Source: Escherichia coli
GTDB lineage: Bacteria > Pseudomonadota > Gammaproteobacteria > Enterobacterales > Enterobacteriaceae
DNA: 64,000 nt
Assembly: GCF_003790525.1 (NCBI RefSeq)
Contig: NZ_CP033635.1
Reading direction: 5' to 3' (one strand)
The position numbers and the translations under genes were made by a program. The notes below the pieces were generated by a model. The model was not told the DNA's origin. It made no database searches and was given only the letters and a program-made list of their open reading frames with translations. How positions within the stretch are numbered: position 1 is the stretch's first letter; every line of letters begins with the position of its first letter. Positions 5,896-43,506 of the stretch are shown here, one piece after another.

Positions 5896-6461
5896 TGCAT
5901 AGTAACAAAGTATTGTTCCACACTTACATTAACGCGTTTTTCGGGCGCGTCATCAGCGATGCATACGAATGATCGCAGTCTGCCAATGGTCGATTTATCT
6001 TGGTTGCGCAGGGGCGAGCACCGGGCAGGTACCGGCGGCTGACTCTGAAGCTCTGAGTCGGGTAATTGCGTCAGGTCACGAAGGACTGACACGGGTATTG
6101 GTGGCAGGTGATGAAGTACTGAGTGTGGTAATTTCGGGGATGCAATGCAGGAGCTGAGTCAGGTTTGCACTGAGCTGAGGACCCGTAGCGAGCGGGTTCC
6201 TGCTATTTTTCGGTGTCAGGGGCGCAAGTCCCGACGTCGGGACTTGCCGGGAGATTGTCAGGTCATTGACCGGGTGTGAGCGGCTCGACGTAAGCGGTAG
6301 ATATGCCCAATTCCCCCCGATAAATTCATTACCAAACACATTATTCAATTTGTTTTTATTTTTCCGCTTTCAGTCATTATCGCTATCGCTTCGTCGGTAA
6401 TGACTCCAACTTATTGATAGTGTTTTATGTTCAGATAATGCCCGATGACTTTGTCATGCAG

Positions 6462-6753
6462 TGGATTTGCCCCTATATTTCCAGACACCTGTTATCACTT
6501 AACCCATTACTGGCCCGCTGCCGTAGATATTCCCGTGGCGAGCGATAACCCAGTGCACTATGCGGATGCCATTCGTTATAATGCTCGAACGCCTCTGCAA
6601 GGTTCTTTGCTGCCGTTAACCCGTCTGGTTTGGGCATGATACTGATGTAATCACGCTTTATCGTTTTCACGAAGCTCTCTGCTATGCCGTTACTCTCCGG
6701 ACTCCGCACCGCCGTGTTCTTCGGTTCAAGTCCCAACATCCGGGCGAACTGGC
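6462..6753 (-). mobile_element. IS2 right-end fragment (about 290 bp) embedded in IS1
   Basis: Starts exactly with IS2 terminus tggatttgcccctatatttccagaca at 6462; inner junction at CTGGCG microhomology near 6748-6753. Confidence 0.7.
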
Positions 6754-6916
6754 GCGATTTAGCCCCGACATAGCCCCACTGTTCGTCCATTTCCGCGCAG
6801 ACGATGACGTCACTGCCCGGCTGTATGCGCGAGGTTACCGACTGCGGCCTGAGTTTTTTAAGTGACGTAAAATCGTGTTGAGGCCAACGCCCATAATGCG
6901 GGCTGTTGCCCGGCAT
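6473..6916 (-). pseudogene. chimeric ORF: IS1 InsB N-terminus (to ...[12 protein letters not shown]) fused to IS2 OrfB C-terminus
   Basis: Translation switches from InsB-like to IS2 OrfB-like (...[15 protein letters not shown]...[17 protein letters not shown]) at about 6750; DDE catalytic region of neither transposase is complete. Confidence 0.7.
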
Positions 6917-7110
6917 CCAACGCCATTCATGGCCATATCAATGATTTTCTGGTGCGTACCGAGTTGAGAAGCGGTGTAAGTGAACTGCAGTTGCCATGTT
7001 TTACGGCAGTGAGAGCAGAGATAGCGCTGATGTCCGGCGGTGCTTTTGCCGTTACGCACCACCCCGTCAGTAGCTGAACAGGAGGGACAGCTGATAGAAA
7101 CAGAAGCCAC
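6835..7110 (-). CDS. insA: IS1 InsA
   Basis: 91-aa product [43 protein letters not shown]... matches IS1 InsA as recalled. Confidence 0.85.
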
Positions 7111-7174
7111 TGGAGCACCTCAAAAACACCATCATACACTAAATCAGTAAGTTGGCAGCATCACCCGCTTTGAA

Positions 7175-8194
7175 GTGAACAATAACCAGGGTCGTTTCGT
7201 ATTTCCGGATACCTGGTTTGGCCCATTACTGGGGGAGTTTGAAGAAGTGCTTGATGCATACGACACTGATGAAATCAGTGAGACGGGTTATATCAACAAA
7301 CTCAGACGCCTTGCTCAACAGGAGCCTGACTTTATTGATATACACGCTCATCTGGCATATGCATTTCTGGAGCAGAATGCCCCGCGTAAGGCACTGAACG
7401 CCGCTCTTAAAGGACTGGCGGCAGGTAATCGTCTCATCCCGGAAAGTTTCAGTGGTGAAATCATCTGGATGCATCCCGAAAACCGCCCTTATCTGCGCGC
7501 GCTTTATGCAACAATTCTCGCAAATGTGCACTTACAGCGTCATCAGGATGCGGTTATGCTCACTGATAAAATACTGGCATACAATCCTGAAGATAATCAG
7601 GGTGCCCGCTGGTTGTTGGGCTCAGAACTGTTACGAACAGGCGATCATAAGCAAGCCTTCAGTGTACTGAAAGAGCATGCTGATGAATTTTCACCTTACT
7701 GGTATGAACTTGGTCTTCTGCATTTTCTGAATGGGGAACATGTTAAGGCTGCCACAGCTTTTCGTCATGGCTTTGCTACAAACACTTACATCGCGGAAAT
7801 GCTGTGCGGAAATTTGCATCCATTTCCACTTGCTGTGCGGCATAACTTCTCCGGCTCTCTGGATACGGCAGAAGATTACTATGCAACATACTCACCATTA
7901 TGGGGACAATATCCGGAAGCATTGCTGTTTGTAAACTGGCTCTATAACCATTCCTCTGTGCTGCATGAACGAGCAGAAATCATTAAATGCGCCGAAATGC
8001 TGATGCAGGAAGATGATTTCGAAATATGCGAAAGCATTTTAAGACAGCAGAAGCTGTTGCGGGAAAGAATTGATGAGACACTTTCTGAGGAAATTGTACA
8101 GAAATGCAGAAATATTAACGGTGAATATGTCTGGCCCTGGATATTGCCGTTTTCAGCAGCAGGAATGAAACACTCAAGCATCCAGCATCAGTAG
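7175..8194 (+). CDS. hypothetical protein, helical-repeat (TPR-like) appearance
   Basis: 339-aa ORF with GTG start 10 bp from IS1 end; no recognised family; N-terminus or promoter may be disrupted by IS1. Confidence 0.4.
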   Translation: MNNNQGRFVFPDTWFGPLLGEFEEVLDAYDTDEISETGYINKLRRLAQQEPDFIDIHAHLAYAFLEQNAPRKALNAALKGLAAGNRLIPESFSGEIIWMHPENRPYLRALYATILANVHLQRHQDAVMLTDKILAYNPEDNQGARWLLGSELLRTGDHKQAFSVLKEHADEFSPYWYELGLLHFLNGEHVKAATAFRHGFATNTYIAEMLCGNLHPFPLAVRHNFSGSLDTAEDYYATYSPLWGQYPEALLFVNWLYNHSSVLHERAEIIKCAEMLMQEDDFEICESILRQQKLLRERIDETLSEEIVQKCRNINGEYVWPWILPFSAAGMKHSSIQHQ

Positions 8195-40171: not shown

Positions 40172-40750
40172 TCAGGACCGCTGCCGGAGCGCAACCCACT
40201 CACTACAGCAGAGCCATGTAGACAACATCCCCTCCCCCTTTCCACCGCGTCAGACGCCCGTAGCAGCCCGCTACGGGCTTTTTCATGCCCTGCCCTAGCG
40301 TCCAAGCCTCACGGCCGCGCTCGGCCTCTCTGGCGGCCTTCTGGCGCTCCTGCTGCGGCGTCCGCTCGTGGGCCGTGGCGCGGGTCCGCGCGCCGGCCTC
40401 GTGCGCCTGGCGCTCGCGGGCGAGGTCCAGGGCGGCCGTCTTCACGTTCTGCCTTGCGCAGATGAGATAGATCTAGCGTGGACTCAAGGCTCTCGCGAAT
40501 GGCTCGCGTTGGAAACTTTCATTGACACTTGAGGGGCACCGCAGGGAAATTCTCGTCCTTGCGAGAACCGGCTATGTCGTGCTGCGCATCGAGCCTGCGC
40601 CCTTGGCTTGTCTCGCCCCTCTCCGCGTCGCTACGGGGCTTCCAGGGGTCGTTTGCGGGAAGGGGCGGAATCCTACGCTAAGGCTTTGGCCAGCGATATT
40701 CTCCGGTGAGATTGATGTGTTCCCAGGGGATAGGAGAAGTCGCTTGATAT

Positions 40751-41587
40751 CTAGTATGACGTCTGTCGCACCTGCTTGATCGCGGCCGCGATAGCTAGAT
40801 CGCGTTGCTCCTCTTCTCCATCCGCGTTCCAAGCTGCGGAAAGGCACCCATAAGCGTACGCCTGGTCGAGCAGGCGACGCGGATCGACGTCCAGCGCACG
40901 AGAGAATGCGTCCGCCATCTGTGCAATGCGTCTAGGATCGAGACAAAGGTCGTCTCTGTCAGCCGGATCGTAGAACATATTGGCGGCGCCAAAGCCCACT
41001 TCACCGACCAGACCGACGGGATCTATCACCAGCCAGCCGCGACTGGAGAACATGATGTTTTCATGATGCAGATCGCCATGTAGCCCACGCAGTTCCGAGG
41101 CATTGCTCATCATTTGATCGGCTATAATCGCCGCGTGGACGTAGTCAGTTTGACAACCTGCGTTTTGATCATCGCGCGCCCGCTGAAACAAAGCTGCAAA
41201 GCGATCCCGGATCGGGAGAAGGGCAGAAGGCAGGGGTTCCTCAGATGCGGCATACAGCTTCGCCATTAGTTCCGCTGCAATTTCGGTCGCCTGGTAGTCG
41301 CCGTGCTCGGCAACGATGTGAGAGAGCATTCGCTCCCCGGCATATTCGAGCAACATCAGATTGTTCTCACGACCGAGCAACCGGACTGCTCCCCTCCCAT
41401 TGCGCCATACCAGATAGTCGGCCCCGCGCAGTTCATCAGCAATGTCTTCTATAGGTTTCAATCCCTTGACGATTGCAGGAGTCCCGTCTGGCAATGAAAC
41501 TTTCCAAACGAGGCTGGAAAAGGTGTCCGCAATGAGAACAGGTTGCGAAACGTGCCAATGAGCAGGAAAAACAGGCGGCATGAACAT
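40751..41587 (-). CDS. strB: aminoglycoside 6-phosphotransferase APH(6)-Id
   Basis: MFMPPVFPAHWHVSQPVLIADTFSSLVWKVSLPDGTPAIVKGLKPIEDIADELRGADYLVW... Confidence 0.95.
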   Translation of the reverse strand: MFMPPVFPAHWHVSQPVLIADTFSSLVWKVSLPDGTPAIVKGLKPIEDIADELRGADYLVWRNGRGAVRLLGRENNLMLLEYAGERMLSHIVAEHGDYQATEIAAELMAKLYAASEEPLPSALLPIRDRFAALFQRARDDQNAGCQTDYVHAAIIADQMMSNASELRGLHGDLHHENIMFSSRGWLVIDPVGLVGEVGFGAANMFYDPADRDDLCLDPRRIAQMADAFSRALDVDPRRLLDQAYAYGCLSAAWNADGEEEQRDLAIAAAIKQVRQTSY

Positions 41588-42390
41588 CAACCCCAAGTCA
41601 GAGGGTCCAATCGCAGATAGAAGGCAAGGCGTTCGCGGTCGGGGGCTTCGATCCCCAATACATTGAATAGGACAGCGAAGGCGCGCTCTGCTTCATCTGG
41701 CGCTGCCCAGTTCTCTTCGGCGTTAGCAATCATGAGTGCCAAATCGGCATAGCGATCTGCTGTTCCGAGCCGCCCAAGGTCGATCAGACCCGTGCATTGA
41801 AGAGTTTTAGGGTCCACCATGAAGTTCGGCATGCAGGGATCACCATGGCAAACAACCATATCGGTGCGCTCTTGGTCGAGCCGCACCGGTAGCTCTCGTT
41901 CGACACGAGCCAAAAGATCGAGCTGCGGCGTACTCTTGTCCTCGTCCGGTAAGAAGTCGGGATTGACGGCATTGCGGGACACCACATCAACGGCGCGTCC
42001 GAACATTCGCGACAGCCTGCGCTCAAACGGACATTGATCAACCGATAGGCTGTGAACAGCGCCAAGTTGCTGCCCCATTGACGGCCACGCTTTGAGCAAA
42101 TCCGCTCCAGACAGATCAGCCGCCGGTACTCCCGGAATTGCCGTTATCACCAAGCATGCACCCTCCTGTTCCTCCTGCCAGTTGATGACCTCGGGGCAAG
42201 CCACACCTCGACCTTTGAGCCAAATGAGGCGGTCACGCTCTCCAGCGAGCTCACCGCGGCGGGAAGCAGGTGCGATTTTCGCGAAGGCATGCCCGTCACC
42301 ACGTCGAAAAACAAAATCACCAGATTCTCCGCCTCTGACAGGCAACCAGTCAGAATGCGATTCACCAAAAAAAATATTAGTTCGATTCAA
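41587..42390 (-). CDS. strA: aminoglycoside 3''-phosphotransferase APH(3'')-Ib
   Basis: MNRTNIFFGESHSDWLPVRGGESGDFVFRRGDGHAFAKIAPASRRGELAGERDRLIWLKG... Confidence 0.95.
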   Translation of the reverse strand: MNRTNIFFGESHSDWLPVRGGESGDFVFRRGDGHAFAKIAPASRRGELAGERDRLIWLKGRGVACPEVINWQEEQEGACLVITAIPGVPAADLSGADLLKAWPSMGQQLGAVHSLSVDQCPFERRLSRMFGRAVDVVSRNAVNPDFLPDEDKSTPQLDLLARVERELPVRLDQERTDMVVCHGDPCMPNFMVDPKTLQCTGLIDLGRLGTADRYADLALMIANAEENWAAPDEAERAFAVLFNVLGIEAPDRERLAFYLRLDPLTWG

Positions 42391-42450
42391 TGGAGGTTCC
42401 TTCAGTTTTCTGATGAAGCGCGAATATAGAGAAATATCCCGAATGTGCAG

Positions 42451-43266
42451 TTAACGAATTCTTGCGGTTTCTTTCAGCGCCGCCAATACCGCCAGCCCGT
42501 CGCGCAAGGGGCGCGGCTCGTGTGTGCGGATGAAGTCAGCTCCACCTGCGGCGGCGGCAAGCTCTGCAGCGAGTGTCGCGGCCCCGACATCCCCCGGACC
42601 ACGGCCTGTGAGCGCGCGCAGAAAGGATTTGCGCGAAACAGACAGAAGCACCGGCAAATCGAAGCGCAGCCGCAATTCATCGAACCGCGCCAGCACCGAG
42701 AGCGAGGTTTCGGGAGCAGCCCCCAGAAAAAACCCCATGCCGGGATCAAGGACAAGGCGGTTGCGTTTGATACCGGCTCCCGTCAGCGCCGCGATGCGCG
42801 CGTCAAAGAACGCCGCAATGTGATCCATGATGTCGCCAGCGGGTGCCTCGCGCCGATCTGCCTGCCCGTCTTGCACCGAATGCATAACGACGAGTTTGGC
42901 AGATGATTTCGCCAATTGCGGATAGAACGCAGCGTCTGGAAAACCGCGAATATCATTGAGATAGGCCACACCACGCGACAAGGCATAGGCTTGCGTCGCG
43001 GGTTGATAACTGTCGAGCGAGACGGGAATGCCATCTGCCTTGAGCGCGTCCAGCACCGGCGCGATACGCGCGATTTCTGTGTCGGACGAAACAGGCGCGG
43101 CGTCGGGATTGCTGGATGCCGGACCGAGGTCGATCACATCTGCCCCCTCGGCCATCAGCTTACGCGCCTGCGCAATGGCTGCGTCTGGCGCCAGATACCG
43201 GCCTCCATCGGAGAAACTGTCCGAGGTTATGTTGACGATGCCGAAAATGATGAGCGATTTATTCAT
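42451..43266 (-). CDS. sul2: sulfonamide-resistant dihydropteroate synthase
   Basis: MNKSLIIFGIVNITSDSFSDGGRYLAPDAAIAQARKLMAEGADVIDLGPASSNPDAAPV... Confidence 0.95.
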   Translation of the reverse strand: MNKSLIIFGIVNITSDSFSDGGRYLAPDAAIAQARKLMAEGADVIDLGPASSNPDAAPVSSDTEIARIAPVLDALKADGIPVSLDSYQPATQAYALSRGVAYLNDIRGFPDAAFYPQLAKSSAKLVVMHSVQDGQADRREAPAGDIMDHIAAFFDARIAALTGAGIKRNRLVLDPGMGFFLGAAPETSLSVLARFDELRLRFDLPVLLSVSRKSFLRALTGRGPGDVGAATLAAELAAAAGGADFIRTHEPRPLRDGLAVLAALKETARIR

Positions 43267-43506
43267 GGGGGCTTCTATAATAATAATAATCGAGCATGAG
43301 TCTCATACGGATGCTCGGGTCGAAAGGGAATCCCCAGGCGAGTAACCTGTTTGCGGTGATCCATTAGCTGCAGGAGCAGAATAGCATACATCTGGAAGCA
43401 AAGCCAGGAAAGCGGCCTATGGAGCTGTGCGGCAGCGCTCAGTAGGCAATTTTTCAAAATATTGTTAAGCCTTTTCTGAGCATGGTATTTTTCATGGTAT
43501 TACCAA

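Follow-up and report, generated by a model that had tools for sequence, protein, structure and literature searches.

The 770 bp at positions 6396-7165 of the window (the whole stretch of 64,000 nucleotides of Escherichia coli DNA that was analyzed) form an IS1/IS2 chimera in an E. coli chromosomal island; at a probability of roughly 85%, the element is a decayed nested insertion, in which IS2 transposed into IS1 and a deletion between two copies of the hexamer CTGGCG followed. The proposed history starts with an IS1 copy that would have resided at the right-hand boundary of the raf module in a tRNA-Phe genomic island; as relatives show, a divergent IS2 variant transposed into the 3' end of insB, between IS1 bases 66 and 67 (in window orientation), and a later RecA-independent deletion of the slipped-strand type, between CTGGCG hexamers 1,334 bp apart, would have taken the left end, orfA, and about 70% of orfB from IS2 and the central 285 bp from IS1. 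As a result, both elements are immobilized; the chimera is real but ordinary genomic debris.

The composition of the element was resolved by BLASTN of 6396-7165 against the IS1A and IS2A sequences of the annotated E. coli K-12 MG1655 record. Element bases 1-66 correspond to IS1A 1-66 (66/66 identical), bases 67-359 to IS2A read from 1331 to 1039 (286/293; E = 4.5e-146), and bases 354-770 to IS1A 352-768 (416/417); matches of hundreds of bases at 98-100% identity are far beyond chance. All three segments lie on the minus strand of the window: the 66-bp IS1 right-end segment (canonical IS1 703-768) at 6396-6461, the IS2 right-end fragment (IS2 1039-1331, with the last 91 codons of orfB/insD) at 6462-6754, and the IS1 left segment (canonical IS1 1-417) at 6749-7165. 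The IS2 fragment begins at 6462, immediately following IS1 base 66, with TGGATTTGCC, the exact right terminus of IS2, and the IS2 right inverted repeat with its exact terminus (...GGCAAATCCA) is present in the chimera; the IS2 left inverted repeat, orfA, and the first 210 orfB codons are absent. At the other end of the fragment, the IS2 alignment and the right-hand IS1 alignment overlap in CTGGCG (6749-6754), the microhomology common to both segments that, by this overlap and by in-silico deletion, marks the putative deletion joint. In total, IS1 67-351 (285 bp; canonical coordinates 418-702) has been swapped for 287 unique bp of IS2, and the chimera measures 770 bp against the 768 bp of IS1. 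The 23-bp right inverted repeat of IS1 (6396-6418, minus strand), located by inverted-repeat comparison, pairs with the left inverted repeat (7143-7165) at 18 of 23 positions, and K-12 IS1A has these same two end sequences. Besides the left inverted repeat, the IS1 left segment includes insA with its promoter region, the frameshift site, and insB up to codon 56. An earlier note on this DNA had described an IS1-sized element with both IS1 terminal repeats and an intact insA, in which about 285 bp of insB were replaced by about 290 bp of the IS2 right end, with an exact IS2 terminus at one junction and a CTGGCG microhomology at the other; the alignments bear out this description throughout, and the BLASTN comparison that the note had suggested returned a three-piece chimera and not a contiguous IS1 variant.

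Many complete E. coli chromosomes, assembled independently and originating from different laboratories, hosts, and countries, contain the 770 bp in one piece and at 100% identity. When 60-mers across the joints were counted at a coverage of 80% or more in 5,426 complete E. coli genomes, the CTGGCG deletion joint was found in 235 genomes and the joint between IS1 and the IS2 terminus in 262; the left flank, the 66-bp IS1 arm, and the IS2 fragment occurred together in 249 genomes, and both flanks were separated by exactly one element (1,770-bp span) in 210. In every case, the chimera lies in a tRNA-Phe island, on the downstream side of its raf (raffinose) operon. The CTGGCG joint is also present in four metagenome contigs, whose flanks match those of the window at 99.6-99.9% identity. 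The exact IS1/IS2 joint was absent from species-representative genomes; thus, barring the four metagenome contigs, the chimera is unseen outside the E. coli collection. Among PLSDB plasmids no single-piece copy of the chimera was found; plasmid matches that covered the whole element in three pieces turned out on inspection to be full-length copies of IS1 and IS2 near each other, and unrelated.

Insertion of IS2 into IS1 as the likely first step is directly supported by relatives of the chimera. With a query in which IS2 was continued beyond the deletion joint, and with single-piece full-length matches counted, a full-length IS2 was found in 18 other E. coli chromosomes, at exactly this IS1(66)/IS2 joint and next to the same rafY-side flank. 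The three that were inspected (PK8275, 702/18, and FXCREC004) share this flank, the 66-bp IS1 arm, a complete IS2 of 1,331 bp, and the identical joint. The IS2 of FXCREC004 differs from K-12 IS2 at 48 of 1,331 positions, and its first 293 bp are identical to the window fragment (293/293), including all seven differences from K-12 IS2; since the fragment shares these variant positions, it descends from that IS2 variant, and the seven mismatches are a variant signature rather than decay. In the genomes with full-length IS2, the side of the IS2 left end adjoins unrelated DNA and not IS1, with the consequence that the 66-bp arm and the right IS1 arm are not demonstrable as original partners. Immediately beyond the IS2 left end, the DNA (at about 6548-6560 in L016, L017, and L018) reads GCAG... 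in PK8275 and 702/18 and TGC... in FXCREC004, a partial match to the expected TGCAG duplication of IS1 bases 62-66 that is followed by unrelated sequence; these partial matches could be due to chance, or could be traces of deletions starting a few bases outside IS2.

The deletion was modeled on an ancestor rebuilt in silico from IS1 and this IS2 variant, inserted at 66/67 together with a 5-bp duplication (2,104 bp in total); 5 bp is the target duplication of IS2. Removal of the 1,334 bp between the CTGGCG at position 354 and the CTGGCG at position 1688 regenerates the 770-bp element base for base, and at a random joint the probability of at least 6 bp of junctional homology is about 0.0013; the exact regeneration and the 6-bp junctional identity together support a short-repeat, RecA-independent deletion. 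A study of E. coli K-12 reports RecA-independent deletions between short direct repeats in this organism (PMC5426353). By the established mechanism of the IS3 family, the pattern observed here, in which the retained IS2 end is intact and the other end is deleted, would be unlike a transposase-mediated adjacent deletion. The earlier note had proposed this same succession of events; its first half, the IS2 insertion, stands on the 18 relatives, and its second half, the microhomology deletion, is what we infer from the exact in-silico fit.

The intermediate expected between the two steps is recognizable by the IS2 left end abutting IS1 base 62 (...GGCCAGTCTA-TGCAG-CTCCACCGATT...). The complete intermediate was not among the top-ranked matches in the 5,426 complete E. 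coli genomes, and the best 30 matches to the IS2 left end/IS1(62...) joint with the correct IS2 variant were all in two pieces. Allowing a spacer of 0-12 bp, the same joint was absent from 100,044 species-representative genomes and from the JGI metagenomes. Matches listed for the 2,104-bp ancestor as query were multi-piece matches joined by chance; the three that were inspected were an IS2 inserted into IS1 at another position (AHB7), an IS1 adjoining an IS2 (pFAM21845_1), and an IS1 inserted in an IS2 (MB56), none of them the intermediate. That the IS2 left end was found next to IS1 in no genome, neither among the top-ranked E. coli matches nor in the species representatives or metagenomes, favors a different route to the same element, in which the deletion would have extended from IS2 into another IS1 copy farther downstream, and the right arm would not be the original partner of the 66-bp arm. 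A suitable starting layout exists in PK8275 and 702/18, where IS1(1-66) and IS2 are followed by about 950 bp that include cybC and then by a full IS1; these are two of the three inspected loci with full-length IS2, the full IS1 is oriented the same way, and the same CTGGCG would be usable. However, this downstream IS1 is divergent, at about 96% identity to the IS1 part of the ancestor, whereas the right arm of the chimera matches IS1A at 416 of 417 positions; moreover, the right flank at those loci is a RelB/DinJ antitoxin gene, in contrast to the TPR gene in the window. The second-IS1 route would require additional rearrangements, whereas insertion into a single IS1 and one deletion give the element exactly; it is regarded as an improbable alternative, at about one chance in ten.

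The coding capacity of the chimera bears on whether it could have been retained for a function. The intact insA gene (6835-7110, minus strand; annotated in RefSeq as an IS1 family transposase) encodes 91 amino acids with a single substitution, P50L, relative to K-12 InsA, and the A6C motif of the programmed -1 frameshift of IS1, TTAAAAAACTC on the minus strand, is retained at 6851-6861. A chimeric open reading frame of 147 amino acids (6473-6916, minus strand) fuses InsB residues 1-56 in frame to IS2 OrfB residues 211-301, as the earlier note had pointed out from the reading frames; only 56 of the 167 InsB codons are left. The IS2 InsD/OrfB part (211-301) is identical to its K-12 counterpart at 90 of 91 positions. 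Pfam assigns DDE_Tnp_IS1 to residues 37-59 and rve_3 to residues 62-127 of the fusion; the IS2 part shows only rve_3, i.e., the C-terminal part of a DDE transposase, and is labeled in RefSeq as a partial 'integrase core domain-containing protein' pseudogene. With these remnants, the chimera cannot encode either transposase, and neither part is mobile by itself, the IS2 part having one end and no transposase, and the IS1 part lacking the InsB catalytic region. InsA is probably still expressed from the relic, because a promoter-like site in the left inverted repeat (7158 to 7131, minus strand) has been kept. InsA is the repressor of IS1. By known IS1 biology, the relic may still make this repressor and may serve as a homology patch for recombination with other IS1 copies; in principle, it could also be moved by the transposase of another IS1. 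On the opposite strand, a sigma-70-like match spans the IS1/IS2 joint (6451-6479, plus strand; TTGTCA, a 17-nt spacer, and TATATT, 10/12), directed antisense into the chimeric open reading frame; this is a consensus match only.

A selected function, either of an in-frame InsA-InsB'-OrfB' product or of a size-conserved element retained for some role, could be read from the in-frame fusion, from the intact state of insA, its promoter, the frameshift site, and both IS1 ends, and from the identical sequence across many genomes. Yet an in-frame fusion has a one-in-three chance of arising, and sequence identity fits a young locus with vertical or island-borne inheritance; the fusion is also without most of both catalytic cores. 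Neither has the relic left any evidence of ever having moved. The 249 copies of the left flank roughly equal the sum of 235 chimeras and 18 full-length-IS2 forms, so that essentially all copies have one and the same left flank and show no sign of transposition. No copies at different loci with their own target duplications, as expected for a MITE-like IS1 derivative, were found, the chimera occurring at a single locus, and there is no PLSDB plasmid copy. The target-site duplication of IS1 is 9 bp, occasionally 8-14 bp; around the chimera a 9-bp target duplication is absent, the left flank ending in ...CGCTTCGTC and the right flank beginning with CGCTTTGAAG / CGCTTTGAA. Selection for a functional chimera is therefore considered very unlikely, and the same low standing is given to the more specific proposal that the fusion, made alongside InsA by way of the retained insA promoter and frameshift site, modulates the transposition of resident IS1 and/or IS2 copies, or that the element is mobilized in trans. 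If the fusion were active or the element body mobilized in trans, the conservation of length and frame would reflect selection rather than chance.

The near-identity in length of the chimera and IS1 is also open to simpler readings. Between the IS2 interior and the right IS1 part, 219 distinct deletions are possible at microhomologies of at least 6 bp; only one of these, the observed one, brings the element within 2 bp of 768, and eight of the 219 come within 10 bp. A priori, such a length match has a probability of only about 0.5%, yet it was noticed post hoc. Mechanistic causes, such as excision-like events and template switching, were considered, and none predicts the length; to our knowledge, no mechanism constrains the length of IS1. 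Since no length-constraining mechanism is known and the feature was noticed post hoc, the agreement between 770 and 768 bp is best read as coincidence. Patch replacement, in which 287 bp of IS2 would have entered insB by gene conversion or a double template switch and a full IS2 was never inserted, would agree with a length kept to within 2 bp and with microhomology at one joint; it is considered highly improbable, as the other joint is an exact IS2 terminus and shows no microhomology, which is a signature of transposition, as relatives hold a full-length IS2 of identical sequence at the same joint, and as a template switch gives no reason to keep the length. Finally, an assembly artefact, in which two repeat families were collapsed or mis-joined into a false IS1-sized chimera as the earlier note had considered, has only the suspicious length match and the repeat-rich region in its favor, and is refuted for practical purposes by the single-piece identical copies in many independent complete chromosomes, by the deletion joint in 235 complete genomes, and by the four metagenome contigs with the same joint and flanks.

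The surroundings of the chimera were compared with other genomes. At 99.99% identity, the window matches the chromosome of strain H9Ecoli (NZ_CP029180), in which a tRNA-Phe gene adjoining yqgA is followed by a P4-type integrase; tRNA-Phe next to yqgA is the position of pheV on the K-12 map. Next in order are genes for a LacI-type regulator, an alpha-galactosidase, an MFS transporter, a GH32 hydrolase, and a carbohydrate porin, which by gene content would constitute the raf operon, and then a spacer of 500 bp, the chimera, a tetratricopeptide-repeat (TPR) gene, a phosphoethanolamine transferase gene, and the rest of the island. The left flank (6345-6395, minus strand) consists of the 3'-terminal 51 nt, approximately, of a BRO-N domain gene cut by IS1; in strain PRO_A-1534, the same raf module is located at another tRNA-Phe without IS1, and the BRO-N domain gene is intact. 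The right flank (7166-8194, plus strand) consists of the TPR gene without its first 15 nt. In strain TUM13754, the integrase is directly followed by the TPR gene with its native upstream region, and the gene start reads ATGAACGACAGATTA|CGCTTTGAAG; compared to TUM13754, the window is without the first 15 nt of the TPR gene and its 432-bp upstream region. The chimera is thus flanked by two unrelated genes, BRO-N and TPR, each uninterrupted in other genomes, and IS1 joins two segments that are non-adjacent in every unoccupied genome inspected. Because these segments are not neighbors in the inspected unoccupied genomes, the chimera is read from this gene order as a recombination seam between the raf module and the island backbone and not as a simple IS1 insertion. 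The RefSeq coding sequence of the TPR gene (7160-8194) is annotated as full and starts at an ATC inside the IS1 inverted repeat; relative to TUM13754 the first five codons are lost, and an in-frame GTG is present at 7175.

The seam has a variant in strain APEC17 (L011 4501-5270), which shares with the window an identical left flank, 66-bp arm, and IS2 fragment, while its right IS1 arm carries eight SNPs (element positions 375-644) and the right flank differs, consisting of an HTH gene, malic enzyme, and dcuC. This variant would best be explained by an exchange with a different IS1 copy, at a point very near the CTGGCG joint.

Several further features of the island were observed in passing. The spacer between rafY and IS1 contains a perfect 24-bp palindrome, GCAAGTCCCGAC/GTCGGGACTTGC (6224-6247), with a terminator-like hairpin just upstream (6179-6199). 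Part of the spacer downstream of rafY (about 5920-6120) has matches of 84-90% in plasmids and in the chromosomes of many unrelated E. coli, O157:H7 among them, and an inverted copy-like sequence flanks IS2 in FXCREC004; from this distribution it looks like a dispersed short module. Upstream of rafR, about 1.7 kb upstream of window base 1, a 41-bp remnant of an IS2 left end (H9Ecoli L010 11844-11884; also L015 19598-19638) matches K-12 IS2 at 38 of 41 positions and stops exactly at the terminus, 25 bp upstream of the rafR start codon, directly followed by CTATAAT; the remnant might form part of the rafR promoter. Because it is oriented like the IS2 stub of the chimera, the raf module is bracketed by two IS2 ends. 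The possibility that it is the other half of the same IS2 was rejected, as a raf island that lacks the IS1/IS2 chimera has the remnant too; it stems from an older, separate event. At about 36400-43300 of the same island, annotation transfer from H9Ecoli identifies a resistance region with floR, tet(A)/tetR, aph(6)-Id, aph(3'')-Ib, and sul2, together with ISCR2/IS91-type fragments and the remnant of a pap fimbrial operon.

The chimera matters little beyond annotation. Annotators should not count the relic as a transposition-capable IS1 copy, and it provides a clean and fully resolved natural example in which IS2 nested in IS1 and a short-repeat deletion ensued; for one junction, the state before the deletion survives in relatives. 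PCR or k-mer assays could use its two unique junctions as a lineage signature for the raf-bearing tRNA-Phe island, which about 4% of complete E. coli genomes carry and which, in the window, also includes a multidrug-resistance region. A description of this particular relic was not found in the literature searched.

Compared with K-12 IS1A, the chimera retains both ends, insA with its promoter region, the A6C motif, and insB codons 1-56 at 99.8-100% identity; in contrast to IS1A, it is without 285 bp of insB and consequently has no InsAB' transposase. From IS2, a member of the IS3 family, it keeps the 293-bp right end with its exact terminus and the 91 C-terminal orfB codons (rve_3), and the parent IS2 was a variant about 96.4% identical to K-12 IS2A. 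The deletion resembles slipped mispairing and 'nearly precise excision' in that a 6-bp direct repeat lies at the joint, one copy of the repeat is kept, and 1.3 kb are lost. In contrast to 'nearly precise excision', the repeats are neither the IS2 target duplication nor the IS2 inverted repeats, and the deletion is shifted by about 290 bp, so that IS1 sequence was lost, an IS2 stub was left, and IS1 was not restored. At the level of the island, the closest counterpart is GI-pheV, in which gene modules form a mosaic with insertion sequences between them (PMC11537424); raf, IS1, and IS2 are unmentioned in that study, and the chimera is likewise located at a module seam, downstream of tRNA-Phe and a P4-type integrase. 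In general terms, a decayed nested insertion sequence at a module boundary of a tRNA-linked island is a situation already described for GI-pheV.
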